A DNA stretch of 64,000 nucleotides from Alphaproteobacteria bacterium (GCA_009777955.1 WRKW01000001.1:21986-85985), one strand, 5' to 3'; shown: positions 4,403-61,192, numbered from the stretch's first letter. Made by a program: numbers and translations. Notes: generated by a model not told the origin, from the sequence alone.

Positions 4403-4933
4403 ATGAAATCTTTATTGATACACCCACAGGTGTTTATAAAATTTTCTAATGAATATAATTATCTTGAAAAACACACAAAGGGCAAACTTGTAAAATCAAA
4501 GGCAGATGTCAGGCGTATTGTGAACGATCATAAATTTTACGACAAAGCTGAAATCGGCCGATTTCGAAGCCAGCAGCCACAATGGGTATTTTCGTTGGAC
4601 ATAGCCTATGCGTTCGATTTTAATAATATCGAAGCATACGATACATGGAGCAGTAGGGTTTTTACTATCGGGGATATTATAAACAAAGAACAGGGCATAT
4701 CCCATGGCTTTGTTCAGGATTGTTGGCTGGTAAACGAAGAATATAGCATTATAAAATATCCGAACGGATATATGGATATCATGGGCGACGACATAGTACT
4801 GAAACCCGGAACCTTGCGCCAGATGAACCCCGTAATAAAGACGCAAAAGGAATCAGAGCTGGACAAAGTATTTACAGAATGCAAAAAAGCACCGCTTTAC
4901 GAAATCCATGAAGTAAAGAAGAAAGTTCGGTAA
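4403..4933 (+). CDS. Hypothetical protein (176 aa), no signal peptide
   Basis: ORF fills the mutS-truB gap. Its stop overlaps the truB ATG (TAATGA at 4931-4936), suggesting translational coupling. No family recognised. Confidence 0.5.
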   Translation: MKSLLIHPQVFIKFSNEYNYLEKHTKGKLVKSKADVRRIVNDHKFYDKAEIGRFRSQQPQWVFSLDIAYAFDFNNIEAYDTWSSRVFTIGDIINKEQGISHGFVQDCWLVNEEYSIIKYPNGYMDIMGDDIVLKPGTLRQMNPVIKTQKESELDKVFTECKKAPLYEIHEVKKKVR

Positions 4934-5874
4934 TGAAATCCGGTTGGGTTATTCTTGACAAGCCGGGCGGCATTACATCCCGCACAGCGGGTGGCCGGGT
5001 CGCGCGCATGTTCGGAATTAAAAAGTTTGGACATTTGGGAACGCTTGACCCCATGGCATCCGGTGTGCTTCCCATTGCGCTGGGCGAAGCCACGAAAATG
5101 ATTCCGTATGTGGAAAAGTTTTGGAATGGAAAAAATATCAGTATGGAAAAATCCTATCTTTTTGGGGTGCAATGGGGATTTGAAACAGATACCGGCGATA
5201 TCACGGGTACCGTGATAAAAAAAAATGAAAAACCTTTTCCATGCCATTCCGAAATAAAAAAAACTTTTGGAAAATTGATTGGCGAAATAGAACAGATTCC
5301 GCCGGCATACAGTGCCGTTCATGTGAATGGCCGCCGTGCGTATGAACTTGCGCGGTTGGGTCGGTCGGTCAATATTCCGGCCAGGAAAATAAAAATTGAT
5401 TCATTGCATCTGGTGGAACCCGGCAAAGCCGAAAAGCGCGGGCAAAGGGATGTATTCTATGTAAATTGTTCCACGGGTACTTATGTCCGCAGCCTTGCGC
5501 GGGATATGGGTATTTTGGCGGGCGGGTATTTGGCGACAGTCGATATGATTCGGCGGACGCGGACACATTGTTTTTGGCTGGAAAATATCCCGCAACCAGA
5601 AAATAGTGCTGTTCCCCTTGATTTTCTTGAAAATCTGTATAATAATGACCCGGCTGGTGTACGGAAGTACCTGTACCCGGTGGATTTCGGACTGGACGAC
5701 ATTCTGGTTGCGGAATTGAAAGACGATGACGCGGCATTGTTTACAAACGGCGGCGTTATTATAACAAAAGATGATTCTGTTGGGTTTCGGCGGGTATATT
5801 CGGGCGGGCGGTTTATAGGAATCGGAATGAACGATAAATATGCCATGATGCCAAAGAGAATCGTAAATTATTAA
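4933..5874 (+). CDS. truB: tRNA pseudouridine(55) synthase TruB
   Basis: 313 aa. [13 protein letters not shown]...[24 protein letters not shown] contains the catalytic GTLDP motif. Canonical truB-rpsO adjacency. Confidence 0.9.
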
Positions 5875-5885
5875 AAGGAAAAACA

Positions 5886-6158
5886 ATGTCGATAACGAAA
5901 GTAAAAAAGACAGAACTTATAAAAACCTATAAATCGTCTGATAGTGATAATGGCGGATCGGCTGAATCCCAGGTTGCGGTCTTGACAGAGCGTATACGGA
6001 ATCTGACCGAACACATGAAAAAAATGCCAAAAGACGAACATTCAAAGCGTGGATTGCTTGTCCTGGTAAATCGCCGGAAAAAGTTGTTGGCCTATATCAA
6101 GGGTCGGAATCCGGAAGATTATGAATCCCTGATTAAAAAGTTGGGAATAAGGAAATAA
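5886..6158 (+). CDS. rpsO: 30S ribosomal protein S15
   Basis: 90 aa. [48 protein letters not shown] is the S15 signature region. Confidence 0.95.
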
Positions 6159-6159
6159 A

Positions 6160-6306
6160 GCATCGTGCGCTATGCGCACGATGCCTTATTAAATAGTAGA
6201 TGCCTGCGCCTTGTCGCGCCGGAGCGAAGGCGGAAGGCATGACGATGGTGTCGCGCTTTGCGCGACGCATTAATTATTCATTATTCACTATTCATTATTC
6301 ATTTAG
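6160..6306 (+). repeat. Composite intergenic repeat, 'family C'. Its first hairpin doubles as the likely rpsO terminator.
   Basis: Starts 2 nt after the rpsO stop with hairpin GCATCGTGCGC-tat-GCGCACGATGC. It continues as ..GGCGGAAGGCATGACGATGGTGTCGCGCTTTGCGCGACGCATTAATTATTCATTATTCACTATTCATTATTCATT. A near-identical copy lies in reverse orientation at 42956-43085, with shorter copies at 40441-40535 and 61283-61372. Confidence 0.85.
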
Positions 6307-6354
6307 TTGAAATCCACTGTTCAATAAGACATCGTACGCAAAGCGCACACCATC

Positions 6355-6450
6355 GTCATTGCGAGAAGCGGCGCGACGAAGCAATCCAGTTAATAAAGCG
6401 CGCATCTTATTTTACCGGATTGCCGCGCAAAATATTTTGCTCGCAATGAC
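6355..6450. repeat. Two facing copies of repeat 'family A' (GTCATTGCGAG-[GC-rich palindromic core]-CGAAGCAATC)
   Basis: 6355-6386 reads GTCATTGCGAGAAGCGGCGCGACGAAGCAATC. 6418-6450 is the reverse-orientation copy, GATTGCCGCGCAAAATATTTTGCTCGCAATGAC. Confidence 0.8.
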
Positions 6451-6543
6451 GGGTTTTGGTGTTTGGTCTGATATCTTAACACTTACCGATTTTTCACTTC
6501 ATTTTTTCTTGATTTTCTGATATACTTCTCTTTAAGAGAGAAT

Positions 6544-8556
6544 ATGAAGTTTAGCTTTCGCATTTTTGCCCTGTGCTCTGTACTTTCTATTTTTCGCGCC
6601 GATGGCGCGGTGCCTACTAATTCGCTGACACCCACGATTCAGGGTGGCGGAACCAATAATCTGACCGCGTTTACTGGAAATGTGGGCGCGATGAATAATA
6701 ATGCCTGGAATCAATCCATACAGGGGGATCGGGGTGGCGGCAACAGCGCGACTGCGGATTTTGGAAATTGTCGCGCCGTGATTTCAAGATGCGCTTCGCC
6801 GCGTTGCGGAAATGGCGGATGTACGGATTTTATGGTTGCGGCGGGAATTGTTAATGGTTGTGTACAGTCGAACGCATCTTGTCGACAGTATGGCGACGAC
6901 CTGGTGAATGCCATGGCTGCGGAACTGGTGGCTAATTCTACATCCCGGGCTAACCAGCAACAGGCACAGATGGCACAGCAACAGGCCGCGGCGGCGGCGG
7001 CATCCGATGCCGCGGCGGCGCAACAGATGGCACAGATGCAACAACAAATGGCCACCCAGATGCAGGAAATGCAGGCACAGATGGCCGCACAACAGGCAGA
7101 ATCCGCCGCACGGGTAGAAGCCGCACTGGCCGAACAACGTCAACAGGCCAGCCAGCCCCAGTCCGCACAGTCGGGTACGGATAACCAGCTGGCCCAGGCA
7201 TCTGACGCGGCCGCAAATGCCGCCGCGCTGGGGATTTCTGCGGATGTATTGGTACGTGAACAGGCTTCGGGTCAAATATTATCAAAATTGGATAATGTAA
7301 AGGCGGCGTTAAACCGCGCCAGGGCGGCGATGCAGGAAACTTTTGACTATGCCGGATGTAACAGACAGGGGGATCATTGCGCCGGTGTTCCGCGCGTATC
7401 GGCGTTTAAAGCAAAGGCACAGGCATTTTTCGAACCGTATGATGAAACCATAGATGAAGTATATGACGCATTAATAATGGCACAGGCATTGGGTGTGGAT
7501 ATAACGGATATATATATGATGTTGAATGGAAGCTGTCATGTATGGGGTCAGTATGCGTGTTCAAGCACTCAGGTAGTGAGATATGAATTGTCAGAAACTC
7601 TCGCAGAACGTGAAATTGTTGACGGAAGTTCCACGACGAAAACTAAAAATGGTCTTTGCAGGTGTGACTCAATACCACAAGGCTCTCCGGGGGCTGGTAT
7701 GATCGATATAAATAATTGTACGGATGCGTATGGAAATAAGTGTAAACCCGGTGCGGTTGTACCCATGAATGCGGGTGGGTGTCAATTGATGCAGATGCTG
7801 ACCGATACTTACACAGTGCAACAAAACTTTTTGGATTCATATACTGGAAGTAGCAGTGGTTCCAGAATTGAACTTGCATGTGCATCCGAAGCTCTAGAAC
7901 AGAACAAACTTTTTGCCCGTCGTAAAAAAGGTTCGAATATAGACATAGAATTATTGGAATATATGCTTGCGGTAGAAGCACCGAATTACCAACCGCGGAG
8001 TGGTAATCCAGCGGATAATTTCCAGTTCTGCTCTGCAAAAGATGTTGAAGTATTGCGCCGTGTTGTCCAGACCAAGAGATTGAATGAAAGAAATATATGT
8101 GTGGGGCAAAGTATGTTAAATAAAGGGCAAACCCTGGGTACAGTGGTTGCTGCCGCCCAGCCGATAAATATGATTGAAGTCGATGGGTTTTGTAAAAATT
8201 CGTGCATACAAGACGAAGAAAGTGGAGAATATAATGTAATTACAGATAATAGTGCTAAATTATATAGTGCTTTGCGAGATAATAGTTTTCATGGTGTGAC
8301 GGGAAATATAAGTAAGCTTTTGGGGGATGGTATAGATACCAAAGAAGACTGTGTAAAGGAATGTATTAAAGAAATGGAAAAAAAATTAAAGGACGATTGT
8401 CAGTCGGATGAGCATGGACCAAAAGGTACTTGGGATATTCTCCATTGTTCTTGTCCAAATAATTCAATTCATGTCCCGGACATTAGGGGTTGTAAATGCC
8501 CAACGAATCTTCCTGTTTGGGTAGGAACAGACGGTCCATGTGTGGCAAACGAATAA
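6544..8556 (+). CDS. Large secreted Cys-rich protein with a Gln/Ala/Met-rich coiled-coil-like linker (paralog of 40652-42838)
   Basis: 670 aa. Signal peptide MKFSFRIFALCSVLSIFRADG. Motif NCRAVISRCASPRCGNGGC. Low-complexity QQAQMAQQQAAAAAA..QMQEMQAQMAAQQ. 28 Cys by my count after the signal peptide. C-terminal CPTNLPVWVGTDGPC. AGAGAG SD-like sequence before the ATG. Confidence 0.75.
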   Translation: MKFSFRIFALCSVLSIFRADGAVPTNSLTPTIQGGGTNNLTAFTGNVGAMNNNAWNQSIQGDRGGGNSATADFGNCRAVISRCASPRCGNGGCTDFMVAAGIVNGCVQSNASCRQYGDDLVNAMAAELVANSTSRANQQQAQMAQQQAAAAAASDAAAAQQMAQMQQQMATQMQEMQAQMAAQQAESAARVEAALAEQRQQASQPQSAQSGTDNQLAQASDAAANAAALGISADVLVREQASGQILSKLDNVKAALNRARAAMQETFDYAGCNRQGDHCAGVPRVSAFKAKAQAFFEPYDETIDEVYDALIMAQALGVDITDIYMMLNGSCHVWGQYACSSTQVVRYELSETLAEREIVDGSSTTKTKNGLCRCDSIPQGSPGAGMIDINNCTDAYGNKCKPGAVVPMNAGGCQLMQMLTDTYTVQQNFLDSYTGSSSGSRIELACASEALEQNKLFARRKKGSNIDIELLEYMLAVEAPNYQPRSGNPADNFQFCSAKDVEVLRRVVQTKRLNERNICVGQSMLNKGQTLGTVVAAAQPINMIEVDGFCKNSCIQDEESGEYNVITDNSAKLYSALRDNSFHGVTGNISKLLGDGIDTKEDCVKECIKEMEKKLKDDCQSDEHGPKGTWDILHCSCPNNSIHVPDIRGCKCPTNLPVWVGTDGPCVANE

Positions 8557-8576
8557 AGGTTTTAAAGTTTAGATAT

Positions 8577-9428
8577 ATGAAAAAAATATTAATTTCATTT
8601 TTATCGATTTTATCCATTTTTCTGTTGGTGTTGGGTGGGTCACCGACTGTGGCATATTCCGCTTTATGTAATGTTGATATGTTGGAAGCGGATGGTACCG
8701 GGCAGCAATTTATAAACCCAGACTATGCTTTATGCAGTGTGCATGCGTATAACATTGGACTTGGCCAGAATCCAACAGATGCCGCAAATCAAGAATTGAT
8801 GAGAGAGGTCATAAGGCTTAAAGCCACCATCATCGCCCAGCAAATGAAAAAGCAGTATGACTTTTTGGATGTGACTATAAAAAGGTTTGAAACCCAGTTG
8901 CAAAAAGCCGTTTTGGTATCAAGGCTAGAGGCTGCGGGCGGTGCTTCTTCGGACAGAACCGGTGGTGGTGGCGGACAGTCGGGCAGCAGTTTACAGGGGG
9001 TAAACCAGAATTGTGGTGGCTCTGGGTTGGCCGCGCTTGATTGTTTGTTGTCTAATAACAGGGAAATGCTGAATATACTAAGTCGTGGCAGTGTCAATAC
9101 CCAGATGCGTGATCAAATGATGCGTGATTACAGGGTTTATAGTGGTATTAATAATGGTCTTGGGGGATATAGAATCCAAGATCTCCAGTTCACAAAAGAG
9201 AGGCCTTCTGGGGCATCGACAGGTTGCGAAGCCATATTAAATACGCGGACTAATAATCTCAGTACGTCACAGGCAAGGGAATGTTTACAATTTATGCAAA
9301 CAGATATTAATAATGTTATTAGGGCAGAAACGCGAGTCGATAATCAAGCTAGGGCGGGAGGAATGAGTTTCCAGCCGGTGTATAATCAGCGGAATCAGCA
9401 GCAGAATCAGCCGGAGTCGGATGATTGA
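8577..9428 (+). CDS. Secreted protein, 283 aa, 6 Cys, helical, Gln/Asn-rich tail; probably co-transcribed with 6544-8556
   Basis: The track ORF begins at 8496, but MKKILISFLSILSIFLLVLGGSPTVAYS, a typical signal peptide, starts at ATG 8577, 20 nt after the upstream stop. No family recognised. Confidence 0.65.
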   Translation: MKKILISFLSILSIFLLVLGGSPTVAYSALCNVDMLEADGTGQQFINPDYALCSVHAYNIGLGQNPTDAANQELMREVIRLKATIIAQQMKKQYDFLDVTIKRFETQLQKAVLVSRLEAAGGASSDRTGGGGGQSGSSLQGVNQNCGGSGLAALDCLLSNNREMLNILSRGSVNTQMRDQMMRDYRVYSGINNGLGGYRIQDLQFTKERPSGASTGCEAILNTRTNNLSTSQARECLQFMQTDINNVIRAETRVDNQARAGGMSFQPVYNQRNQQQNQPESDD

Positions 9429-9464
9429 GTTATTGCGAGCCGCAGTAAAAGCTTAACATTCAAT

Positions 9465-9650
9465 CCCGCTTTGCGCGACACCACCGTCATGCCTGTAAAA
9501 GTCAAATAATTCGTGGACATATTCTTAACGGCAACGAAGTTGCCGTCATTCCTGCGAAGGCAGGATCCACTGTTCAATAAGAAATCGTGTGCTTTGCGCA
9601 CGATACATATATTATTCATTATTCACTATTCATTTAAAAAATGTGTCTAT
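9465..9650. repeat. Mosaic of intergenic repeat modules (family C fragment, family B element, hairpin, TTCATTAT-type tail)
   Basis: CCCGCTTTGCGCGACACCACCGTCATGCC. Then TGTAAAAGTCAAATAATTCGTGGACATATTCTTAACGGCAACGAAGTTGCCGTCATTCCTGCGAAGGCAGGATCC. Then AATCGTGTGCTTTGCGCACGAT. Then ATTATTCATTATTCACTATTCATT. Each module recurs elsewhere in the window. Confidence 0.8.
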
Positions 9651-9792
9651 CAACGGAATTTTAATTTTCCCCTTGATTTGGGTATAAAAAATGTTTTATA
9701 CTAGTTTCCGCTTGATTTATCTAAATATTATGGTACCGTGCGCGGGATTATAGTGGCAATAAGGGGCGAATATCACGCAAAAACAGAGTTTT

Positions 9793-9866
9793 AGGGGCGT
9801 AGTTCAACGGTAGAATAGAGGTCTCCAAAACCTTTGGTGAGGGTTCGATTCCTTCCGCCCCTGCCA
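9793..9866 (+). tRNA. tRNA-Trp (anticodon CCA)
   Basis: AGGGGCG/CGCCCCT acceptor stem, anticodon loop CTCCAAA, T-arm GAGGG-TTCGATT-CCTTC, encoded CCA. Canonical position upstream of secE-nusG. Confidence 0.93.
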
Positions 9867-10873: not shown

Positions 10874-11308
10874 ATGGCAAAAGCAAAAGAAGTAAAGGGA
10901 TACGTTAAACTCGTAGTTCCCGCGAAACAGGCGACACCCGCGCCGCCGATCGGGCCGGCACTGGGTGCCAATGGCGTAAATATCGCAGAATTTACAAAAC
11001 AATTCAATGATGCGACCAAGGACAAGGAAGCCGGTATGCCGATTCCGGTCATAATCACGGTCTATACCGACCGCAGCTTTGAATTTATAATGAAGCTGCC
11101 CCCGGTATCGTATTACATAAAGAAAGCACTGAATCTGAAAACCGGTTCCAAAAAGCCCGGCCGTGATATGGTCGGAACATTATCCCCCGCCCAGGTGCGC
11201 AAGATAGCCGAAGACAAAATGCCGGATTTGAATTGCGATTCCATCGAAGCCGCGATGAAAATCGTCGCCGGTCAATGCCGTTCTATTGGCGTAAAGGTAG
11301 AGGGTTAA
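10874..11308 (+). CDS. rplK: 50S ribosomal protein L11
   Basis: 144 aa. VKLVVPAKQATPAPPIGPALGANGVNIAEFTKQFN is the L11 signature. Confidence 0.96.
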   Translation: MAKAKEVKGYVKLVVPAKQATPAPPIGPALGANGVNIAEFTKQFNDATKDKEAGMPIPVIITVYTDRSFEFIMKLPPVSYYIKKALNLKTGSKKPGRDMVGTLSPAQVRKIAEDKMPDLNCDSIEAAMKIVAGQCRSIGVKVEG

Positions 11309-11311
11309 GAT

Positions 11312-11983
11312 ATGAAAATTACGAAAAAAATGAAAACTTGGGCTGCTTTGGATACCGATAAGATATATACCGTGGCCGATGCTGTCGAAGCTTTGCGTGA
11401 ATATGCGTCAAAAAAATTCGATGAAACGCTTGAAATTGCGGTGCGGCTGGGCATTGATGTGACAAAGGCAGACCAGAATATTCGTCTGATGCTTTCATTA
11501 CCCCATGGCACCGGCAAAAAAGTTCGTGTTGCGGTTGTCACAGAAGATAAGGCAGAAGAAGCCAAAAAAGCCGGGGCCGATGTCATAGGCGGGGAAGAGC
11601 TGATTGATAAAATCGCGGGCGGATTTCTGGAATTCGACCGGGTTATCGCTTCGCCCGACATGATGCCGAAAATGTCAAAAGTCGCGCGCGTTCTGGGGCC
11701 AAAGGGTCTTATGCCGAATCCAAAGCTTGGCACCGTGACAAACAATATTGCAGATGGCGTTAAAACCGCCAAAGCGGGTCAGGTAGAGTTGCGTGCCGAA
11801 AAGAAAGGCATTGTACATGCCGGTGTCGGTAAAATGTCATTCGCGACCGAAAAACTGGCTGAAAATGCGGCGGCCATAGTTGATGCCTTGAAAAAAGCGA
11901 AACCGGCATCCAGCAAGGGTCAATATATCCTGGGCATTTCTGTGTCTACAACACAGGGGCCGGGGTTAAGGGTAAGTGCATAA
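11312..11983 (+). CDS. rplA: 50S ribosomal protein L1
   Basis: 223 aa. FDETLEIAVRLGIDVTKADQNIR and GPKGLMPNPKLGTVT are the L1 motifs. Confidence 0.96.
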   Translation: MKITKKMKTWAALDTDKIYTVADAVEALREYASKKFDETLEIAVRLGIDVTKADQNIRLMLSLPHGTGKKVRVAVVTEDKAEEAKKAGADVIGGEELIDKIAGGFLEFDRVIASPDMMPKMSKVARVLGPKGLMPNPKLGTVTNNIADGVKTAKAGQVELRAEKKGIVHAGVGKMSFATEKLAENAAAIVDALKKAKPASSKGQYILGISVSTTQGPGLRVSA

Positions 11984-34101: not shown

Positions 34102-35151
34102 ATGTTTTGGACAATCGCCGGATTTTTAATTGTTCTGGGCATCGTTATAATAGTGCACGAACTGGGGCACTATTGGGCTGCACGTATTGCGGGGGTACGG
34201 GTCAGGACTTTTTCCATCGGTTTCGGAAGGGCGATTGTAAAATGGACTGCAAAGGGTGGTACAGTTTGGAAAATCGCGTTGTTGCCCCTTGGCGGATATG
34301 TTTCGCTTTATGGCCACGAAGATATATTCGACCGTAAAAAATTTGAATCCTTGCCCCCAGAAAAAAAGAAAGGACATTATCTTTCGGCTTCGGGATGGAT
34401 GCAGGCAATGATTTCCGCCGCCGGTGTCATATTGAACTTTGTATTGGCCTTTGTGATTTATACTGTTCTGTCCATAGGATGGCCGCGTCAGGTACAGCTT
34501 CCAGTTATAGGCCAGGTTATCCAAAATTCGGTCGCGTATAATGCCGGTGTCCGCGCGGGCGATGTAATTGCGCGTATAGATGGTGCGAAAATTGGAAACT
34601 GGGGTGACATAATAATTGCGAAAGAGCTGGCCGCGAGCCGCGATGCAAAAATAGCGATTATTCGCGGTGAAAAACTGGTACAGGTGCAGCTTTCTCCGGC
34701 AGAACGCTGGGGGCTGATCGCCGATGGTGCGAAAACAGAAATGCAAAGAAAAAATATCTGGACCGGGATACGCGCCGGTGCCAGAGAAGTATGGATTCAA
34801 ACCAAGACAATCATTACCGTGTTGAAACAAATAATTACGGGGGAAAGATCTTCAAAACAGCTGGGATCTTTCATACTTATCGCACAGATGTCGGGACAGG
34901 CATTGGCAGCGGGGATTGCCGCCCTGTTATCACTGACGGCGTTGTTGTCCATCAATCTTGGGATACTTAATCTTTTGCCTTTGCCGGTTTTGGATGGCGG
35001 TCATCTGTTGATTCGTGGAATAGAAGGGATTACACGCAGAAAGCTGCAAGGCAAAGCGATGGAATATATATTTATATCCGGCTGGATATTTATCGGACTT
35101 TTGTTCATTATGACCATGAAGAATGATATATTCAGGGTGCTTGGTTGGTAA
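34102..35151 (+). CDS. rseP: RIP zinc metalloprotease RseP (site-2 protease)
   Basis: 349 aa. HELGHY at the N-terminus, a central PDZ-like GDVIARIDGAKI segment, and C-terminal NLLPLPVLDGGHL. Confidence 0.92.
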   Translation: MFWTIAGFLIVLGIVIIVHELGHYWAARIAGVRVRTFSIGFGRAIVKWTAKGGTVWKIALLPLGGYVSLYGHEDIFDRKKFESLPPEKKKGHYLSASGWMQAMISAAGVILNFVLAFVIYTVLSIGWPRQVQLPVIGQVIQNSVAYNAGVRAGDVIARIDGAKIGNWGDIIIAKELAASRDAKIAIIRGEKLVQVQLSPAERWGLIADGAKTEMQRKNIWTGIRAGAREVWIQTKTIITVLKQIITGERSSKQLGSFILIAQMSGQALAAGIAALLSLTALLSINLGILNLLPLPVLDGGHLLIRGIEGITRRKLQGKAMEYIFISGWIFIGLLFIMTMKNDIFRVLGW

Positions 35152-35152
35152 T

Positions 35153-35500: not shown

Positions 35501-35566
35501 TCGTTTGACAATCAAATCGTCCATTGATAAAATTGGGTTCAGGTTCAAACCAAAAAGGAGACCCTT

Positions 35567-35704
35567 ATGAAAAAATTGTTACTATTGGGCTTTGCTGTCC
35601 TGACATTGGCTGCTTGCACCGGTTCTTATAAAGACGGAAAGTGCGACTATGATTATCTGTTGCATCCGAAAATTTCGGTAACCCGCGTTGTCGGATGTTC
35701 ATAA
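35567..35704 (+). CDS. Small lipoprotein (45 aa; below the ORF-track cutoff)
   Basis: Hand translation gives MKKLLLLGFAVLTLAACTGSYKDGKCDYDYLLHPKISVTRVVGCS*. AAGGAGA SD 7 nt upstream, lipobox LAAC. Confidence 0.55.
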   Translation: MKKLLLLGFAVLTLAACTGSYKDGKCDYDYLLHPKISVTRVVGCS

Positions 35705-40651: not shown

Positions 40652-42838
40652 TTACTGTGTGATTGTACATGTACTACCAACCCATGTGCCGCTTTTATTT
40701 TGACACCACATTTCATCCATAAAATTGTCTTCGCTTGCACTATTACTTGTTACTGTACCTCTAGTGACGCTTAAACAGGTTTTTGAAATAGATCTGCATG
40801 CATCTCTTGCGATAGATTGGGGGCGCGCATCATCTTGTTTCCCGCCACTATTCTGGTTTAAACATGTTATAACATCCATGACGCAGTTTTCAGCATGACT
40901 TGCGATTACTTCATCTTGTTTAGTTTTTATTTGAAAAAATACACGTTTCAAAAATTCTTTTGTTCCCATGTTATCTGGCTTGAATACTCTTCTGTTTGCT
41001 GGACCTCTAAATGATACATTTTGGCATTTATTCAATACGGATATGCACATGCCATGACTTTTTCCATCTTTCTCGTTTACCCAACCAATTTTGTTCATCA
41101 TGGAAACCAACAACACAGATGCTTGAGGAATGTGAGGGTCAAACCCTTTAGCAGGATCCGATGGAGTAAGCTCATTAAGTTTATCCAACATATCATCTAT
41201 AGTACCAGCACCGTTTCCGCTTAGCCAAGGATTGGCAGATGTTCTACTTGTTCCATAACTCCAGACTTTATAAATTCCTTCGCTGGCAGGCGATGTAACA
41301 GTATCAAAATTACCTGGCATACTTCCCGGCACAAGAGCTCCATTAACTATGAATTTACCTGTCGGATCAAGGCAGTTTTCATAATCGCTGCCACAAACGA
41401 AATCATTCTGCATACAGGCATCAAGTGCGTTTACACAACCTTTCATATCATACATATTCTTGCTTTGTGCAACTGCAAGACGTGCGCGTTCCAATACTGT
41501 CTTTGCATTTTTTACAGTCCGGCGCATATTGGTGTTCGCATCGTCCAGACTGCGTTCGTATACTATGCATTGGCGGTCGATTTCAAGATCGTACGAATTG
41601 GAAAGTATTGTAGTGTCGACACCCTGGCGGCGACAATTTTCAAGAACAGACCGTTTGCATTGGGTAGACGCGCTTTTGTACAGTTCCGCCCCGCGCATAT
41701 TTATAATGTTGCCCCCCCCGCCGAAATTAAACAAAGAGCCAAGGTCGAAACCAAAATCAGAATCAAACGACATCTCAAAATCCAGTGACAGACCTTCGTC
41801 TGAAAATGTCGCGCTGGTCGGCTTTAAATCAAGAACCAACCTTCCAATGCGTGCTATATCGGCCGCATTCTGTGTGGAATCCACGGTGCCGGCCATTGCT
41901 GCTTCGGCTTCTGTTGCGCTGAACAGACTTATGACTTCATCTTTGGTAAGGCCGATATATTGTATTTTACGCGCAACATCTTGTAATTCTTCGGTGGCTT
42001 GTTTAAGGGTACTTTCCAGATTTCTGTATTTTGTTACGCTGGCACTGCATGAACAACGACCCTGGTTGTCATCAAGCACCGCGCAGTATCCATCCATACA
42101 TGAAAAATATTGTGCCCGACAGAAATCTGACAGCTGTGCAATTTCTTCCATTGTGGGTCCGGACATCTGCATTTGTCCCTCTGCACTGCGTGCAGTGCTA
42201 TTGCCAAGGCTGCCGCCGCCTATGCTGCTGTTCCTGCGTATCGGTGTGCCGCGGGCAATCCCACTGCGTTCAGTATTTGCCGGGGTATAAAGAGATCCGC
42301 CGGCGGCTTGGGTAACACCGGAACGCGCCGTATTTACGTTTTGTATTGGTTGTCTGGGGGTGGTTGCCTGTGCCGTTGGTGCGTTTTGCGCCGGTACAGC
42401 CTGTGCCCCGCCGGCCGCACTGCGCATGGCGGATGCAGATCCGCCCGTTGCCATTGCACGGGATGTTTGGGCACCCGAACCCTGGGCATTTATTATATTT
42501 CCAGCGGTAGTTACAGGAACCGCAGAACGCGAAGCCACAGCACGTGTTTGTACTGTGTTCCCCGATCTATCCGCTGGGCGTGTCGCACCCTGAACACCGG
42601 GCACCGCACCGCCACCCCGTGCCACATTGCGATTGATTGTCGCACGTGGATTAATATTTACAGGTTTTGCCGCAACCGGGGCAGTGGATGTTGATGCAGA
42701 TTCAAGCTCTGCCGTTTCTTCTATGGGTTCAACTTCGTCCGCGTATTCATCGGCATACCCGAAATATTGGGCGGGCGAAATCTCTGCAACCGCAGGAAAT
42801 GCAAGCAGTCCAAGCATAGCGAACAAATATTTTTTCAT
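40652..42838 (-). CDS. Large secreted Cys-rich protein with an Arg/Ala/Gly/Ser/Thr-rich N-terminal linker (paralog of 6544-8556)
   Basis: 728 aa. Signal peptide MKKYLFAMLGLLAFPAVAE, about 200 aa of low complexity, then FCRAQYFSCMDGYCAVLDDNQGRCSCS, helical segments, KGCVNALDACMQNDFVCGSDYENC, and C-terminal WCQNKSGTWVGSTCTITQ. 20 Cys by my count. Confidence 0.75.
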   Translation of the reverse strand: MKKYLFAMLGLLAFPAVAEISPAQYFGYADEYADEVEPIEETAELESASTSTAPVAAKPVNINPRATINRNVARGGGAVPGVQGATRPADRSGNTVQTRAVASRSAVPVTTAGNIINAQGSGAQTSRAMATGGSASAMRSAAGGAQAVPAQNAPTAQATTPRQPIQNVNTARSGVTQAAGGSLYTPANTERSGIARGTPIRRNSSIGGGSLGNSTARSAEGQMQMSGPTMEEIAQLSDFCRAQYFSCMDGYCAVLDDNQGRCSCSASVTKYRNLESTLKQATEELQDVARKIQYIGLTKDEVISLFSATEAEAAMAGTVDSTQNAADIARIGRLVLDLKPTSATFSDEGLSLDFEMSFDSDFGFDLGSLFNFGGGGNIINMRGAELYKSASTQCKRSVLENCRRQGVDTTILSNSYDLEIDRQCIVYERSLDDANTNMRRTVKNAKTVLERARLAVAQSKNMYDMKGCVNALDACMQNDFVCGSDYENCLDPTGKFIVNGALVPGSMPGNFDTVTSPASEGIYKVWSYGTSRTSANPWLSGNGAGTIDDMLDKLNELTPSDPAKGFDPHIPQASVLLVSMMNKIGWVNEKDGKSHGMCISVLNKCQNVSFRGPANRRVFKPDNMGTKEFLKRVFFQIKTKQDEVIASHAENCVMDVITCLNQNSGGKQDDARPQSIARDACRSISKTCLSVTRGTVTSNSASEDNFMDEMWCQNKSGTWVGSTCTITQ

Positions 42839-51539: not shown

Positions 51540-52547
51540 TTACGGACATGTGGAAAGCAGGTGTATAACCGTCGCAACATCATCGCGTATGGATACGGTT
51601 CTTTCGCGACGTAATCCGTCGTAATAAGTGTAATTCAATGGTTGTTCTTCAAATTCAGGCGTGGCATGCGCTATCTGGGCAAATGGTGCAAGCATGGCAT
51701 CAAAAAATTTGCGGCTTCGGCACAGACAGGTGTCGCGGACGCTTGCGACAAGCTCTGCCGTTGTCTGGTCGGGGGCATGTTCGTACAGATAGTTATCCTG
51801 CATCATCAGGCATCTTTCACTGAAATGAAAAAAGTTGGCATCATCCAAAATGAATTTATATATAAAATCGTTTGACGCGCCAGCACGTTTTAACTGGTAC
51901 ACAATACCATCCATGCAGCAAGCGCGCGAACTTGCCATCAAAGTCTTGTATCTGTTCAGCAGGGGTCTGACACCCGGTGCATTCGCGTCGATTTCTTGTC
52001 CGGCTTTTGAGAACGATGATAATGCCATCACGCTTCCAGAATCTATTTTTCGGGGCATTGGCGCGACAGTTTCGCGAAAGTGCGGTTTTGTTTTCCAAAT
52101 CGTACATTCCGTTTCAAATTCAAAAGGACAACCATCGGTTCGTGTAAAAGTTTTGTTTCCATCCGTGTCAAAGAATTCACCGGTTTTTACTTCCATTATT
52201 CCAAACCGGCTGCCACCGTGTTGTCCAGTGGCCAAAAGCTCCTCTATCAGACGTTCTGTTTCAAAATCGCGATTTTCCAGCCTTAGAATTTTTTCACGTT
52301 TTTCGGGCAGGCTTGTTATCCGAACGGCTTTTGGTGTCTGGTCGTTTTCAGACAGAGAGATATTTGAAAGTTCAGATGATTCCTGAGTGTCGTCGTGATA
52401 AAATTCTCCGCGGGACCAAAAATCCCAATCGTCCGATGCATAAGCGGACACAACCGGGAACAGATAAAAAATAATATAAAAGGAGAACAGCCCGCAACTT
52501 AATGAACGGGCAAAAGGATGAAAATTTTTATTATCAGCCGCATTCAT
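51540..52547 (-). CDS. Hypothetical exported/anchored Cys-containing protein inserted between the Skp-like gene and lpxD
   Basis: 335 aa. N-terminal hydrophobic segment GLFSFYIIFYLFPVVSAYA. Motifs DGCPFEFETEC, SSRACCMDGIVY and RDTCLCRS. No family recognised. Confidence 0.6.
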   Translation of the reverse strand: MNAADNKNFHPFARSLSCGLFSFYIIFYLFPVVSAYASDDWDFWSRGEFYHDDTQESSELSNISLSENDQTPKAVRITSLPEKREKILRLENRDFETERLIEELLATGQHGGSRFGIMEVKTGEFFDTDGNKTFTRTDGCPFEFETECTIWKTKPHFRETVAPMPRKIDSGSVMALSSFSKAGQEIDANAPGVRPLLNRYKTLMASSRACCMDGIVYQLKRAGASNDFIYKFILDDANFFHFSERCLMMQDNYLYEHAPDQTTAELVASVRDTCLCRSRKFFDAMLAPFAQIAHATPEFEEQPLNYTYYDGLRRERTVSIRDDVATVIHLLSTCP

Positions 52548-56423: not shown

Positions 56424-58901
56424 TTACAATATCGGTGGGAAGCAGTCGCCGTCGCCGGATGCAGGACAGCAAGAACCAGTGGGTGAATCGGGGCTGGTAA
56501 CGCTTGGGTCGAATACTTCACCCATGCTTGCACAACAGCCTTCATGATCCGGTGGGCTTCCGTCATCACAGCTTATACCCATAGAAACAGCGGGTGGTGG
56601 CGGTGGTGGTTTTTCAAATGGGTTTTTCAGCATGGTGCCGGCATCATTATATTGCAGTCCCAAAATCTGTTGATTATATTCCTGGGAACTCGGGGCCAAT
56701 ATTTGACCGCTTTGTGTGGTTATTCCGCCACGATTGCTTAAATCTTGCCAATAAGTGTTATATGCGGCTTGGGTTCTGCCCTGGTACATGTTTGATTTGC
56801 ACCAGAATTCCGCAGCCCGATAATCCAGGCCTTTTGCTTGTAATTGAGCTGCATCAAGTGCAACTTCGCCGGTATTGTTGCCATTATTATCTGTTTCACA
56901 AACGCCTTGCATGCTGGTGGTAAACGCGCGAACCTGTCCCATCCATTCTTCGGGGTTGTTTGACATTTTCAGTTGGTTGCTTGGATTTACATAAGGTCTG
57001 TAAAATTCGCTGGGGGCATGGATTGCACATTTTTTATTTTCGATACCTTCCTCGCCGCATGTTACTACCAGATCGGTTGGCGAAAATACTGTTATTCTGG
57101 TTCCGGCTGCGATAGAGAATGGCGGGGTGGTATTTTCCAACATATCCATGGTAAGTTTTTGCACAACCTTGTTCCAGGTGGATATTATTTCCTGTTTTGC
57201 AAGTTCGCTGGAACGAACTTGTCCGGACTGTGTCACTGTATTGTTATCAAGATCAATCTGATTCACGAACCTGTCCGATATAGGCGCGATAAGGTTAACG
57301 GCCGCAGGAACCACAGCTGTTATCATGGGCATAAGCATACTTTCTATATAGTCTGTGGTTCCGTATCCTGGCACTCCGGCACGACCCTGGCTGTCGGCGG
57401 AAAACGGTTCTTGATCGCCTGCAAAATTAAATTCCACGCCATCCGGTCGTACAAATCGGTACCATTTTATATCCATTCGTCCTATGGATCTGTATGGCCC
57501 TGGCAGTTCGCCCGTCATGAAACCCAACATCATGGTTCCGGCCGGAACTATTATTGTGCGGCCGTTATCGGAATATACGTGGCGATCGACAGTTGCTGTG
57601 ACCGGCAGATGCGACATGCGCTTTGGATCCGCGCGAATTTCTGAAACGATTGTCGCCGGTATAGGCTTGAACTGGCGCAGGACAAATGTACGGTCGTGTG
57701 GAACGCTGGATACGGTCGCTTCGGCACCTATGGAAGATGGCAAAAGACTGCTGACTGTTCTTTGTTCTCTCATTTCTATACGGGTGGCTTCGCCTGCCGC
57801 CGGGGTTGGGGCTGATGATTGTTGCGCCCTGTTTATTGTGCGACCGCTTCTTGCGCTGGAAAGATTTGGCAGGGCAAGATTTGCAGTAACACTGCGTGCA
57901 CCGATACGTTCTGAATCAGAGCCGATTGTCTTTGATTTATTCTTTATGTCATAAATCAGACCAGTATCCGGATTGTATTCGCCCGTGGGATTATTGCAAT
58001 CTCTGTCACTGAACGGATGGTACATATACCGACCGCCGTCTGCACGAATCCATCCAGAATGTCTTCCAGATAAATTATATCCAGCAAATGCGAATTCGTA
58101 ACACAGCTCTGCCGCTGGTGTAGCATCAATGATTACATCATTGGAAACTGGGGCTTGGGGACGGGGTTCCGGCACAGGCAACGGTTCTGGTTCGAATTCG
58201 GGTTCAAATTCTTGTTCGTACTCTGGTTCGAAAGGCAAATCTTCTTCAAAAGTAAGATCCGGTTCCAATGAATCAAAAACAGGGTCGATTTCTTCAAAAA
58301 TAAATGTTGGTTCCGGTTCTGTTATGCTGAACGGTTCTGTGTTTTCTATATTCGTTAATGTTTCCGGTTGGCGGGCGGGTATATTTTCATTTTTTGATTC
58401 TTTCGCCGATAACAGAACTGGTAACTTTTCCATTTCCGACATGCTTGCCGGTTGGGTTGCCGAATGATATATTATCTGGATTTCCGCACCAGTATCTTTC
58501 AGCGGAACATCCGGTTTGAATTCCAATGTTATGTTGCATGGAACTTTTGGCGAAATTACCCCCATGTTAGTGCAAGTGGAACGCTGGGTCAGCCCATGAG
58601 AATCGGGATCTTCCAATCCGGCGATTTTAACATCTGCAATCTTTACATCCGTTGTTGCTGAAACTTCGATTCTTTGGGTTCTGGTATCGCCGACCGTGAC
58701 ATCGCGCCATTCTATTTCAGTCGTATCCAGCACAATACCGATTTTTACAGCGGTGGTTGTTCTTTGCGTTTTTTTCGGACTGGATAATACTAGCAAAAGT
58801 AAAATCACTACTACCAGAAACGCCGCGAACAAAAGCAACCATTGCACATGAACAGGCAACTGTTGTCTAAGATTTGTGAAAAATTCTTTAAGTTTGCTCA
58901 T
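56424..58901 (-). CDS. virB10: VirB10/TrbI-family type IV secretion core protein with an extra N-terminal module and a Cys/Pro-rich C-terminal extension
   Basis: 825 aa. N-terminal TM WLLLFAAFLVVVILLLLVL, acidic/Pro-rich EPEFEPEPLPVPEPRPQAP, and TrbI-like core IPATIVSEIRAD..VTATVDRHVYSDNGRTIIVPAGTMMLGFMTG...GRMDIKWYRFVRPDGVEF...SQGRAGVPGY...AGTRITVFSPTDLVV. A tail of about 212 aa with 10 Cys and PPPPPP follows. Confidence 0.8.
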   Translation of the reverse strand: MSKLKEFFTNLRQQLPVHVQWLLLFAAFLVVVILLLLVLSSPKKTQRTTTAVKIGIVLDTTEIEWRDVTVGDTRTQRIEVSATTDVKIADVKIAGLEDPDSHGLTQRSTCTNMGVISPKVPCNITLEFKPDVPLKDTGAEIQIIYHSATQPASMSEMEKLPVLLSAKESKNENIPARQPETLTNIENTEPFSITEPEPTFIFEEIDPVFDSLEPDLTFEEDLPFEPEYEQEFEPEFEPEPLPVPEPRPQAPVSNDVIIDATPAAELCYEFAFAGYNLSGRHSGWIRADGGRYMYHPFSDRDCNNPTGEYNPDTGLIYDIKNKSKTIGSDSERIGARSVTANLALPNLSSARSGRTINRAQQSSAPTPAAGEATRIEMREQRTVSSLLPSSIGAEATVSSVPHDRTFVLRQFKPIPATIVSEIRADPKRMSHLPVTATVDRHVYSDNGRTIIVPAGTMMLGFMTGELPGPYRSIGRMDIKWYRFVRPDGVEFNFAGDQEPFSADSQGRAGVPGYGTTDYIESMLMPMITAVVPAAVNLIAPISDRFVNQIDLDNNTVTQSGQVRSSELAKQEIISTWNKVVQKLTMDMLENTTPPFSIAAGTRITVFSPTDLVVTCGEEGIENKKCAIHAPSEFYRPYVNPSNQLKMSNNPEEWMGQVRAFTTSMQGVCETDNNGNNTGEVALDAAQLQAKGLDYRAAEFWCKSNMYQGRTQAAYNTYWQDLSNRGGITTQSGQILAPSSQEYNQQILGLQYNDAGTMLKNPFEKPPPPPPAVSMGISCDDGSPPDHEGCCASMGEVFDPSVTSPDSPTGSCCPASGDGDCFPPIL

Positions 58902-58940: not shown

Positions 58941-60437
58941 TTATTGTATTCTTACCACATGACAGGCGACCGATTGGAACTTTTGCAATTGGTTGCAAAG
59001 CGTCTGAGCCTGATCTATGCCCGCCAACGGGCCGATACGCAGACGGTACAGTCGGGCAGAGCTGTTACCACCACCCAAATCGCCAACACCTTGTTCATCT
59101 ATTGCGAAGAACACTTTATCCCTGTAAGGAGTCAAGATTCCCGCGCCCTCATCACCGCTGAACTTTGCAAGCATCGTAGTCCAGTAATCATTAAGTGCCT
59201 TTACCGATGTGTCGGATCGCAATTCTACCGCGACACCAGCCTGATTGCTTGTAATCAGCGGTATGTTTGTTTGTGGCAGATATGATCCCGCAGTATTGCG
59301 TTGTTGTGGTACCATGTTCAGACCCGGGCTGCCCAAAGGCATAGTTGTTGGCGCACCGTGCATTTGTTGCATCGGCATCATCGGAACTTGTTGCATTCCG
59401 TACATCTGCTGCATCTGCATCATTCCACCATCCATCACAGGCATGCCAAAATAGCCAACATTGTTAAGTGATTGGGACGAATGCATGCTGCGTGCGACAT
59501 TTGCTTCTGCCAGGGCCATTACGCTTGCGGTATCTGCGATCAAGAATGGCTTTTCACGTTTCTTGATGCATACAAGCCGTTGACCGCTGCGCAGAACCAT
59601 ATCGCCGACCGCTTCGACGATAAGCAGGCGACCGTGTTCTCCATCAGTCCTGAACCCTACTGGACTTTCACCGCCTTCGATCAATATTGATACAACGGGT
59701 CGCTGTGTCATAGCGATGACTTTGTCTCCGAAATCGATATAGGTGAATATGCGGTCGCGCCATACGCGTTCCGGGGCAATAACATAATCGTCGGGATTTG
59801 GAACGAATATATCCAGATCGAACCGGAATTCTGATGGATCTATTTTCATTGTTTTTATCCAGCCATAATCTTCGCCGTCTGCCCCAATTGTATTGGTTCC
59901 GGCACCACTTTTTCTGGGAAATATTGAATTCATTCCGCCGCCGCTTGTTTGTCCGGCAGATGCAAAATTAACGGGCATGCTTGAATTGCCATCCAGTACA
60001 ACATCGACCTGGGTATATGTGATTTCCGATGAATTCGATGGTTCGGATCGCAAATAGAACAGGTATATGTTCCCGGATTTTCCGGTGACGATAAGGTTTG
60101 TGTCAGACCCCATATTATTTTCCAGCGGGGATATAAGCATTGTGCGACTGCCTTTTTGGACATCAAACTTGAACAGGCCATCACTTCCAATATCCCCCGC
60201 TTCAATCGCTTCCCCCTGGGGCAGATTTACCATGGTAACCATTCCAGTGCGCAGTTTTATTGGCAAGATTGTGCCAGAGCTCCAGGTAAGCCTTGCATAT
60301 CCGGGTTTCAGTGAACCGGCGGCCATGTTGGCTTCTGGGTGATCCCATGCCTCTTGGATATTTGCGTGCGCCTTTCCGATAAATATGGAAAAGCAAAACG
60401 CAAGGCACAAGGCGCAAAGCATAGATAGTTTTTTCAT
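58941..60437 (-). CDS. virB9: VirB9/TrbG/CagX-family type IV secretion core protein fused to a Met/Gln-rich linker and a SPOR-like domain
   Basis: 498 aa. Signal peptide MKKLSMLCALCLAFCFSIFIGKAHA. N-domain ..LPIKLRTGMVTMVNLPQGEAIE...TNLIVTGKSGNIYLFYL. C-domain IAPERVWRDRIFTYIDFGDKV..RPVVSILIEGGESPVGFR..LLIVEAVGDMVLRSGQRLVCIKK. Then MMQMQQMYGMQQVPMMPMQQM, and finally ..LYRLRIGPLAGIDQAQTLCNQLQKFQSVACHVVRIQ. Confidence 0.8.
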   Translation of the reverse strand: MKKLSMLCALCLAFCFSIFIGKAHANIQEAWDHPEANMAAGSLKPGYARLTWSSGTILPIKLRTGMVTMVNLPQGEAIEAGDIGSDGLFKFDVQKGSRTMLISPLENNMGSDTNLIVTGKSGNIYLFYLRSEPSNSSEITYTQVDVVLDGNSSMPVNFASAGQTSGGGMNSIFPRKSGAGTNTIGADGEDYGWIKTMKIDPSEFRFDLDIFVPNPDDYVIAPERVWRDRIFTYIDFGDKVIAMTQRPVVSILIEGGESPVGFRTDGEHGRLLIVEAVGDMVLRSGQRLVCIKKREKPFLIADTASVMALAEANVARSMHSSQSLNNVGYFGMPVMDGGMMQMQQMYGMQQVPMMPMQQMHGAPTTMPLGSPGLNMVPQQRNTAGSYLPQTNIPLITSNQAGVAVELRSDTSVKALNDYWTTMLAKFSGDEGAGILTPYRDKVFFAIDEQGVGDLGGGNSSARLYRLRIGPLAGIDQAQTLCNQLQKFQSVACHVVRIQ

Positions 60438-60511: not shown

Positions 60512-61192
60512 CTAAAAATCCAGCGGATCCCTGCCACCTTCAACCGTATATTCCGACACAAATATACCCAGCGGGTTTTCAAGACGACTTGCCCATTTTA
60601 TGGTATTATCGTCATTACGGTTAATTTTGAAATCTATTCCTATGATAATTGTATAATCTTTTCGGCCTATTTGTAAAGCATTATCCTCGCAGAAATATTT
60701 GAAATTTACTTCGTATGTCGAATTTCCCCTTTCGCCGCGTTTCAAAAGACTTACGGGGCGATCCGCAAATTCGACCCGGCACACCAGCCTTGAATCCGGC
60801 ACGTTGGTCATTATCGACTGGAACATCCTTGTCTGTGTGAATGCGTTATAGACTTCGGAACTGGACCATATGTTGACCATTCCGTTTTCACCCGTCCACC
60901 ATTTCCGTCGCATGACATTGATATTTGGTATGATTTCATTGCGGACTTTTATATATTCCCTTACAAAGTTTTCCTTGAATTCTTCGATATTCGCATCATT
61001 CGGAAAATAAGATCGCACGGTTATATGGCTGTCTGCGCGTGGTTCAGTGGTAAGAATGAAAATTTGGGTTTTCGACAGGGGCAAAATGTTGGACAAAGTC
61101 ACGACCAGTGCGACAACGGTCGCGAGCGCGGTCGCGAACACGAATGTCAGGATTCTGGACATTAAAATAGGCGGTTCTATGGTATTCATCAC
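60512..61192 (-). CDS. virB8: VirB8/TrbF-family type IV secretion inner-membrane protein
   Basis: 226 aa. Single N-terminal TM ILTFVFATALATVVALVVTL, FVREYIKVRNEI (family-typical F...Y...re.y) and C-terminal ENPLGIFVSEYTVE (NPLGF.V..Y motif). Confidence 0.7.
   Translation of the reverse strand: MMNTIEPPILMSRILTFVFATALATVVALVVTLSNILPLSKTQIFILTTEPRADSHITVRSYFPNDANIEEFKENFVREYIKVRNEIIPNINVMRRKWWTGENGMVNIWSSSEVYNAFTQTRMFQSIMTNVPDSRLVCRVEFADRPVSLLKRGERGNSTYEVNFKYFCEDNALQIGRKDYTIIIGIDFKINRNDDNTIKWASRLENPLGIFVSEYTVEGGRDPLDF

Follow-up and report, generated by a model that had tools for sequence, protein, structure and literature searches.

This study was concerned with two adjacent genes, here called A and B, at positions 6,544 to 9,428 of a 64,000-nucleotide (nt) stretch of DNA from Alphaproteobacteria bacterium (GCA_009777955.1 WRKW01000001.1:21986-85985), which is referred to as the window. 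We regard it as about an even call that the products of A and B form an exported, disulfide-stabilised, two-subunit coiled-coil complex in the envelope or at the surface of a partner-dependent lineage, with a structural role, an adhesive role, or both. Any specific role is put forward with lower confidence than this general reading. Disulfide bonding, physical interaction of A with B, their final location in the cell and their biological role are all points that we infer.

An earlier reading made from the sequence alone, the original prediction, had described a two-gene module of secreted Cys-rich proteins at this site, and both open reading frames (ORFs) and both export signals were seen. The recount of Cys residues agreed with it, giving 28 after the signal peptide of A (29 in total, with C11 inside the signal peptide) and six in B, and the gap from the A stop codon to the B ATG was measured at the 20 nt it had stated. 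A promoter and terminator scan found no terminator-like site in this gap, which is consistent with an operon; the only clear signals in that scan were the rpsO hairpin and the hairpins of the flanking repeats. A longer reading frame for B opens at 8496 and overlaps A. Since every homologue of B starts at the MKK... position instead, 8496 is not considered the real start.

The gene order in related genomes carries most of the argument that A and B belong together. One genome per Genome Taxonomy Database (GTDB) species was scanned, which gave 106 loci with relatives of A, and 80 of these were kept; ORFs were called in each and searched with the A and B profiles. A was present in all 80 loci and the pair was complete in 78. 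In 66 loci B comes straight after A on the same strand, and the two genes often abut or overlap; in another 12 it is fused in frame to the C-terminus of A, where the B domain stands in place of the variable tail of A. B was not detected in two loci, one of which (L079) is truncated at a contig end. The fusion was checked by BLASTP, in which residues 37-236 of B matched residues 547-749 of a 789-amino-acid (aa) A homologue (P0045) with 37% identity and E 1e-32. With 66 adjacent and 12 fused pairs among the 80 loci, A and B are functionally coupled, and by the classical Rosetta-stone argument this points to a physical or functional complex.

Both genes have large families with narrow limits. At least 1,110 homologues of A were found at E<=1e-3 among 8,000 scored candidates, with a best E of 1e-149, and homologues of B reached E 1e-66; thus neither gene is a chance ORF. 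The A family comprises more than 1,100 clusters at 90% identity and is restricted to one lineage. Its members are 550-800 aa long and typically show 40-45% identity over 73-80% of the query, and nearly all of the records are unnamed or "hypothetical protein" entries from metagenome-assembled genomes (MAGs) of uncultured Alphaproteobacteria or "Rickettsiales". A word-indexed search found 55 homologues of B, and an exhaustive profile search with HMMER, run on 1.84 billion representatives, found 257 relatives at E<=1e-3 (about 250 representatives when the family is counted at 50% identity). As 247 of these lie below 1e-10 and 214 below 1e-30, the B family is sharp-edged and without distant relatives. 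Only three architectures occur: B as a stand-alone protein of about 230-290 aa, the A-B fusion of about 700-780 aa, and a form of about 350-370 aa with an N-terminal CarboxypepD_reg-like extension. The third form (P0155-P0170; for example 8001-9107 of locus L086) joins a B-like domain to an N-terminal CarboxypepD_reg-like beta-sandwich (PF13715/PF13620) and belongs to another alphaproteobacterial lineage; in L086 the fusion gene stands alone between argS and rplM, with no adjoining A.

The structure of A was analyzed from two alignments (A1 and A2) and an AlphaFold2 (AF2) model (m8ee5be9d1493), which has a mean predicted local distance difference test score (pLDDT) of 65.5 and a predicted template modelling score (pTM) of 0.36. 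The order of features originally described, namely signal peptide, Gly/Asn-rich stretch, Cys cluster, Gln/Ala/Met-rich stretch and Cys-studded end, can be read in the sequence. The N-terminal hydrophobic signal is kept across the homologues of both A and B, and beyond it no other membrane segment was found in the sequences or alignments of either protein. The Cys within the signal peptide of A is not conserved, and no lipobox was seen by eye in alignment A1. After the signal peptide there is an N/G-rich motif, NLTAF.GN.GA.NNN.WN, in which N39, N52, W55 and N56 are invariant, followed by a helical module with six invariant Cys in the arrangement C76-x6-C83, C88-x4-C93 and C106-x6-C113 (pLDDT 79-91). 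This module contains the Cys cluster NCRAVISRCASPRCGNGGCTDF..GCVQSNASC, at residues 75-113.

The next part of A had been described as low complexity. The composition is real, with 36 Ala, 29 Gln and 7 Met counted over residues 136-250, but the stretch is not mere low complexity: positions 166, 169, 173, 176 and 180 are hydrophobic, mostly Met, with a 3-4-3-4 spacing that is conserved across 65 homologues. The AF2 model places one helix of about 90 residues at 111-202 and return helices at 212-270. Only the distal tip, at about residues 200-225, is of low complexity and variable length. The Q/A/M-rich region thus appears to be, for the most part, a conserved coiled coil with a Met core. We call the coiled coil a true one on three grounds: the family-wide 3-4-3-4 pattern of hydrophobic residues in A, the heptad pattern of B, and the long helices that AF2 predicts in both proteins.

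The same Met residues could be read as ligands. Met-rich periplasmic copper proteins exist, and A has a conserved M-x2-M-x3-M pattern together with many Cys, so that a periplasmic metal-binding protein, for example one that binds Cu(I) through the MxxM/MxxxM stretch and the Cys clusters, was considered. We find this very unlikely. The Met residues fall exactly on heptad positions a and d of a long helix in the model, as is characteristic of the core of a coiled coil, and Pfam and NCBIfam gave no match to a copper-resistance family of the CusF, CopC or PcoC type. In addition, no metal-handling gene occurs among the neighbours scanned (a subset of the recurrent ones), A has no His-rich motifs, and its conserved Cys form an even set.

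The coiled coil of A is followed by a second conserved core with the motifs FDYAGC-x6-C and the nearly invariant FFEPY..LDEVYDALI.AQ.LGVDITDIYMMLNG.C.VWG, and with invariant Cys at C272, C279, C331, C339, C413 and C446. The C-terminus is Cys-studded and ends in CKCPTNLPVWVGTDGPC. In the alignment A has 12 invariant Cys and about four others that are conserved at 90% or more, which gives an even set, and three of the conserved pairs have the C-x6-C spacing (C76/C83, C106/C113 and C272/C279) and lie in or beside predicted helices. This pattern, an even conserved set with C-x6-C pairs at predicted helices, is consistent with disulfide bonds.

The structure of B was analyzed from alignments A3 and A4 and an AF2 model (m1647c3aa03bf; pLDDT 71.9, pTM 0.47). 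It consists of a signal peptide, the invariant motif LC.(V)H.YN, a heptad-patterned helix, a Gly/Ser-rich linker (residues 121-145) and a helical bundle. The heptad pattern covers residues 75-117 in the alignment (..VVALKTT.ITQQMKKQYD.LE.T.KRFKTQLEKA.L..KLEAAG), and AF2 predicts a helix of about 50 residues there. Four of the Cys of B are invariant and two are at least 90% conserved. Inspection by eye of its signal region, MKKILISFLSILSIFLLVLGGSPTVAYSALC, and of the homologues (consensus ..AADNGC) found no L-[AS]-[GA]-C lipobox.

Family and fold searches agreed with the original prediction that no family could be recognised: Pfam, NCBIfam, PADLOC, PHROGs, PDB sequences and Foldseek all lacked a significant match. 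At E<=1, Pfam gave only two low-complexity chance matches for A (Membralin and TFIIA) and none for B. NCBIfam returned compositional noise only, and PADLOC and PHROGs returned no matches. A profile search of PDB sequences with A found coiled-coil noise only (lamin and plectin, E about 0.2). The sole match of B in that search was a weak one to 3gi7 (DUF1311; E 0.3, residues 137-231 of B), and Pfam reported no DUF1311 or LprI-like domain for B, nor was 3gi7 among its 50 listed Foldseek matches. The best Foldseek matches in PDB had E 2.1 for the A model and 3.1 for the B model, and with models of moderate confidence a fold match could be missed; in BFVD the best match of the A model had E 0.3. 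Nothing in PADLOC, PHROGs or, for the A model, BFVD pointed to an anti-phage defence or phage protein. As judged from these searches, A and B represent uncharacterised protein families with unmatched folds.

The 80 kept loci come from MAGs of termite, ruminant, horse, chicken, mouse and human guts. The genus label, where one is given, is "Candidatus Enterousia", which the NCBI taxonomy places in Alphaproteobacteria incertae sedis and a 2025 paper assigns to the GTDB order Rs-D84 (PMC12306168). According to that paper, Rs-D84 genomes are reduced (about 0.67-1.6 Mb, mostly below 1 Mb), lack respiration and flagella, have few transporters and have lost most biosynthesis, and the organisms are probable obligate symbionts or parasites (PMC12306168). 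The complete chromosome OZ246409.1 is 716 kb, and the A-B pair has been retained in genomes of about 0.7-1 Mb. The window sequence occurs in a termite gut metagenome, and the housekeeping proteins that it encodes share 59-72% identity with their counterparts in the termite-gut MAG locus L002/L017. The window genome would belong to Rs-D84 on the strength of this relatedness, and not of a direct classification.

The pair has diverged faster than its genomic background. Compared with L002, A is 44.5% and B 42.6% identical, and the values for the housekeeping proteins (59-72%), VirB8 and VirB10 (52%) and c2, an exported Cys-rich protein (50%), are all higher. This rate pattern, with a conserved core and a fast tail, fits envelope or surface-exposed proteins. 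No RNA run was listed for the window's own sequence. In three bovine-gut metatranscriptomes, low-depth contigs (depth 2-4) were found inside the A homologue of a sheep-rumen MAG (L014), with similar depths over the genes next to it. They give a weak indication that this homologue is transcribed, as DNA carry-over could also explain them. An rRNA gene begins at the end of the same locus (11265-11536), where contig depth is in the thousands and elsewhere 0-4, so that the available RNA runs carry little mRNA signal for that organism.

The position of A-B varies between genomes, and it is the recurrent context that suggests the envelope: skp, lpxD, fabZ or the gene for c2 lies within 6 kb of the pair in 50 of the 80 loci. 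For example, the gene order in L002 is virB8-virB9-virB10-skp-c2-lpxD-fabZ-A-B...yidC-lspA-nhaP-ksgA. In the window fabZ adjoins lspA, and A-B instead follows rpsO, with mutS (1862-4324), a 176-aa ORF, truB (4933-5874) and rpsO (5886-6158) upstream and tRNA-Trp (9793-9866), secE, nusG, rplK and rplA downstream. Other recurrent neighbours are a BspA-type LRR_5 (leucine-rich repeat) protein, an OmpA-like lipoprotein and a Cys-free protein of about 310 aa that ends in ...MYRF and resembles an outer-membrane barrel. Genomes of the Enterousia type encode, next to A-B, a BspA-type LRR protein, a protein of 1,040 aa that contains 37 Cys, and one that is similar to an outer-membrane beta-barrel. Judged by these neighbourhoods, the lineage appears to have a set of exported Cys-rich proteins encoded around its outer-membrane biogenesis cluster.

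This distribution bears on the claim that the module, bracketed by mosaic repeats, interrupts a housekeeping stretch. The interruption was not borne out, as the pair is vertically conserved in at least 80 species-level genomes while its position shifts; truB-rpsO is found upstream of A-B in only one other sampled locus (L080), and the commonest placement is near skp/lpxD/fabZ or c2. The repeats themselves are present in both spacers. Their segments at 6154-6350 and 9464-9634 have four sub-repeats in common (83-94% identity), together with inverted copies, and the unit of about 115-150 nt has two hairpins, GCATCGTGCGC-tat-GCGCACGATGC and GTCGCGC-ttt-GCGCGAC, after which the heptamer TTATTCA comes three or four times. 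They are not specific to the module, since their sites in the window are 6159-6303 (+), 43090-42975 (-), 9464-9494 (-), 9565-9634 (+) and 61285-61306 (+). Near-identical units follow rpsO (6159-6303) and tig (43090-42975), the latter upstream of a gene for a 728-aa exported protein; in both places the repeat comes directly after the preceding stop codon, in the same orientation, just upstream of gene A or of the 728-aa gene. Among the 86 loci fetched, the repeats matched L001 only, and L001 is the window sequence itself. They are therefore dispersed intergenic repeats of this one genome and not module boundaries, and each could be a MITE-like (miniature inverted-repeat transposable element) element or a shared terminator or promoter cassette.

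A mobile island that had been acquired recently and had inserted, with repeats at its ends, beside tRNA-Trp would account for the related repeats on both sides, for the tRNA gene 365 nt downstream and for a position that differs between genomes. There is barely any chance that it is correct. All 80 species-level genomes that were sampled carry the pair, and its divergence follows, but exceeds, that of the housekeeping genes; there is no integrase or transposase; the repeats also lie at two other sites in the window and, among the 86 loci fetched, match only L001; and the GC content is unremarkable (0.48 and 0.42 in two 2-kb bins, compared with 0.36-0.50 in the window). Distribution, repeats and GC content effectively refute an island origin. 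The repeats may have mediated a rearrangement, and in that sense a relocation within the genome is possible.

The presence of virB8, virB9 and virB10 in the genome raises two further readings. In the first, A and B are effector-like or toxin-like proteins that are exported by Sec, folded oxidatively and released onto or into a partner cell, perhaps through a VirB type IV system, much as pertussis toxin leaves through Ptl. The Sec signals and many Cys of both proteins, the virB genes, the variable C-terminal tail of A and the partner-dependent lifestyle proposed for the lineage (PMC12306168) are in keeping with it. We consider it unlikely for several reasons. First, no catalytic or toxin domain was found in Pfam, NCBIfam, PADLOC or PHROGs. 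Secondly, A-B is a single-copy core pair with a conserved core of 480 residues in all sampled species, and effectors are usually patchy. Third, the long coiled coil and the obligatory coupling of two subunits look structural. Lastly, in the window some 47 kb separate the pair from the virB genes, and elsewhere it is linked to skp, lpxD and fabZ, not to virB as such.

In the second reading, A and B serve the VirB type IV secretion system as accessory or pilus parts; B, for example, might be a minor pilin or tip protein like VirB5, and A an associated subunit at the surface. We judge this as quite improbable. B is helical, has about 250 aa and carries a Sec signal, and in size and class it is thus close to VirB5/TraC. 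In L002 the pair belongs to one co-directional run after virB8-9-10-skp-c2-lpxD-fabZ, and in the window virB8-9-10 lies on the same strand as, and close upstream of, the skp-c2-lpxD-fabZ cluster. Nevertheless, neither A nor B has a Pfam match, and so neither has a recognisable VirB5/TraC domain; no type IV secretion protein is among the 50 listed Foldseek matches of B in PDB (best E 3.1); no virB gene is among the recurrent A-B neighbours in the 80 loci; and the window pair, about 47 kb from virB8-10, is outside the virB operon.

The envelope or surface complex of A and B is the reading best supported here. Both proteins would cross the inner membrane by means of their signal peptides. Their helical modules would then be stapled by intramolecular disulfides, with i/i+7 Cys pairs on one helix face, and the Met-zipper helix of A and the 50-residue helix of B could together make an extended coiled-coil rod. 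In this arrangement the conserved globular parts would sit at one end of the rod, and the fast-diverging Cys-rich tail or tip would be exposed. The complex may lie in the periplasm, in the outer membrane or at the surface, where it would serve envelope architecture, attachment to a partner cell, or both.

Several points weigh against this proposal. The cellular location of A and B, their disulfides and their binding to each other are predicted. Neither protein has a recognisable anchor (lipobox, beta-barrel or peptidoglycan-binding domain), and the AF2 models are only moderately confident at the pLDDT and pTM values given above. The linkage to outer-membrane biogenesis genes is frequent and not universal, and in the window itself the pair sits between rpsO and tRNA-Trp. 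Respiratory chains are reportedly lacking in Rs-D84 (PMC12306168). A crude motif scan, which took in the window and about 1 Mb of flanking sequence from relatives and so covered little of each genome, gave no convincing DsbA-like ORF. Lastly, the evidence for expression of A-B is weak, given the possible DNA carry-over. The coordinates of all features are collected in Table 1.

Table 1. Genes A and B, the parts of their products, the flanking spacers and other genes of the window discussed in the text
Feature	Position	Strand	Description	Basis
Gene A	6544..8556	+	670 aa, exported (predicted)	ORF call
A residues 1-22	6544..6609	+	Sec-type signal peptide MKFSFRIFALCSVLSIFRADGA	By eye, sequence and alignment A1
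A residues 35-135	6646..6948	+	Conserved N-terminal domain, AF2 pLDDT 79-91	Alignments and AF2
A residues 136-270	6949..7353	+	Q/A/M-rich coiled-coil region (predicted)	AF2 and alignment
A residues 271-520	7354..8103	+	Conserved core 2, mixed alpha/beta Cys-containing part	Alignments and AF2
A residues 521-670	8104..8553	+	Hypervariable C-terminal Cys-rich tail, sequence and length vary	Alignment
Gene B	8577..9428	+	283 aa, 6 Cys, exported (predicted), from MKKILISF	ORF call
B residues 46-120	8712..8936	+	Most conserved part, motif LALCSVHAYNIG..NP, then helix	Alignment and AF2
B residues 146-260	9012..9356	+	Helical bundle, conserved C146, C156, C217, C236	Alignment and AF2
rpsO-A spacer	6154..6543	+	rpsO terminator-like hairpin 6154-6190; repeat copy ~6159-6303; pieces to ~6350	
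B-tRNA-Trp spacer	9429..9792	+	Dispersed-repeat pieces 9464-9494 inverted, 9565-9634 direct	
728-aa exported protein	40652..42838	-	20 Cys, seven C-x6-C pairs, signal peptide, no Pfam match	
c2-family exported protein	51540..52547	-	335 aa, 9 Cys, no Pfam match, between skp and lpxD	
virB10	56424..58901	-		Pfam scan
virB9	58941..60437	-		Pfam scan
virB8	60512..61192	-		Pfam scan

Two other Cys-rich genes of the window may belong with A-B. The seven C-x6-C pairs of the 728-aa protein compare with an estimated 0.5 or so expected by chance, and this protein is related to the c5 family (hhalign probability 85%, E 6e-6), whose members have about 1,040 aa, 37 Cys and C-terminal hydrophobic segments and are encoded just upstream of A-B in about 30 Enterousia-type genomes. 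The 728-aa gene is possibly associated with A-B. It is unrelated to A itself (BLASTP E 0.043 over 63 residues; hhalign probability 1.4%). That A could be a paralog of the 728-aa protein, or of the neighbour families c5, c2 and c6, was rejected, as hhalign probabilities were all below 25% and most below 2%. The c2 gene, which in the window stands between skp (52613-53269) and lpxD (50457-51518), is likely to be associated with the pair: of 82 related loci checked, 46 have a homologue no more than 6 kb from A-B. Members of the c2 family are 335-430 aa long and have 9-14 Cys and no Pfam match.

The Met/Gln-rich linker of A had been likened to one in a VirB9-like protein. The true VirB9 of the window (58941-60437; CagX E 2e-18) does have an M/Q-rich stretch, GMPVMDGGMMQMQQMYGMQQVPMMPMQQMHG, and the likeness is one of composition only. 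A VirB9-like identity for the 40652-42838 product was rejected, as the Pfam scan found no CagX/VirB9 domain (PF03524) in it, nor in A or B. The linker of VirB9 spans about residues 331-362, and its C-terminus is weakly SPOR-like. In VirB10 (825 aa) the N-terminus is extended at length, and the C-terminal tail, ..CDDGSPPDHEGCCASMGE..SCCPASGDGDC, is rich in Cys. The virB8-virB9-virB10 cluster (56424-61192, minus strand) is directly followed by dnaX, not by virB11 or virD4. Upstream of virB8, at 61384-63942 on the minus strand, lies a highly charged, K/E/D-rich ORF of 852 aa without a Pfam match, in which an acidic repeat of 38 aa, DRVDAPDIDGMPEPGTDKSDDIDSQSEISEDEPLTPD, occurs in about 2.3 tandem copies.

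Three other ORFs of the window were noted. A 176-aa ORF at 4403-4933 (plus strand), between mutS and truB, ends at the truB start and lacks both a Pfam match and a homologue among the related loci. At 54125-54619 (minus strand), between dnaX and an OmpA-family gene, the N-terminus of a 164-aa ORF is weakly pilin-like; its two signals, N_methyl (E 0.026) and PilS (E 0.005), fall below the curated thresholds. At 34102-38184 (plus strand), frr-uppS-cdsA-rseP is followed by a 335-aa ORF without a Pfam match and a 415-aa AIR-synthase-related protein. In Proteobacteria bamA usually follows frr-uppS-cdsA-rseP; here, none of the window ORFs that were scanned with Pfam was seen to be bamA.

The interest of A-B lies in its host lineage. 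Rs-D84/Candidatus Enterousia is widespread in the guts of humans, livestock, rodents, birds and termites. A dependence on a partner organism has been proposed for it (PMC12306168). A pair of about 950 codons that is present in every sampled species, exported, fast-evolving and found in this lineage only is a prime candidate for the structure that enables this lifestyle. It offers a target for antibodies, imaging coupled to fluorescence in situ hybridisation, structure determination and interaction screens, and a specific marker gene for the lineage; if A-B is a plain periplasmic scaffold, its interest is modest. A wider proposal, which we hold to be doubtful, is that A and B, c2, the C-x6-C family of c5 and the 728-aa protein, and the BspA-type LRR protein together make up an undescribed disulfide-cross-linked coiled-coil apparatus of the surface or envelope that defines Rs-D84/Enterousia and serves attachment to, or survival between, partner cells. 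Such an apparatus, with novel folds, might be a functional analogue of the chlamydial cysteine-rich outer membrane complex or a new kind of adhesion fibre.

Four known systems resemble A-B in part. First, envelope coiled-coil rods, namely Braun lipoprotein (Lpp) and the alpha-hairpins of periplasmic adaptors such as HlyD, share with A a long heptad helix in an exported protein, and an HlyD hairpin (5c22) was among the weak Foldseek matches of A, without significance (E 5.1). However, A and B have no lipobox, C-terminal Lys, lipoyl or beta-barrel adaptor domain, and no significant structural match, and the coiled-coil core of A is Met-rich with a length-variable tip, unlike these rods. Secondly, Twin-CX9C (CHCH) hairpins and the Helicobacter Hcp/Sel1-like proteins have Cys pairs at whole-turn spacing that could staple helices, as proposed for A. 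The spacing is x9 in CHCH and x6 in the three conserved pairs of A and the seven of the 728-aa protein; in addition, neither A nor B matches these profiles in Pfam, the compartment here would be the bacterial periplasm or surface, and the pairing in A is predicted. Third, VirB5/TraC is comparable with B in size, Sec signal and helical class, and type IV secretion genes are present in the genome; B differs in having no profile or fold match, in not being encoded with the virB genes, and in always being paired or fused with A, for which the type IV system has no counterpart.

Lastly, chlamydial OmcB and OmcA, of the cysteine-rich outer membrane complex, offer a likeness in setting. A and B have no Chlam_OMP6 match in Pfam, are predicted to be mainly alpha-helical coiled coils and come from an unrelated lineage, and OmcA is a lipoprotein, whereas no lipobox was seen by eye in B. 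What the two systems have in common is a pair of adjacent genes for Sec-exported, Cys-rich envelope proteins in a small-genome, obligately host-dependent bacterium, and a disulfide-stabilised envelope is the proposed logic of both. By analogy, then, a Cys-rich exported envelope pair in a host-dependent bacterium with a reduced genome, as A and B appear to be, has analogues, such as chlamydial OmcA/OmcB.

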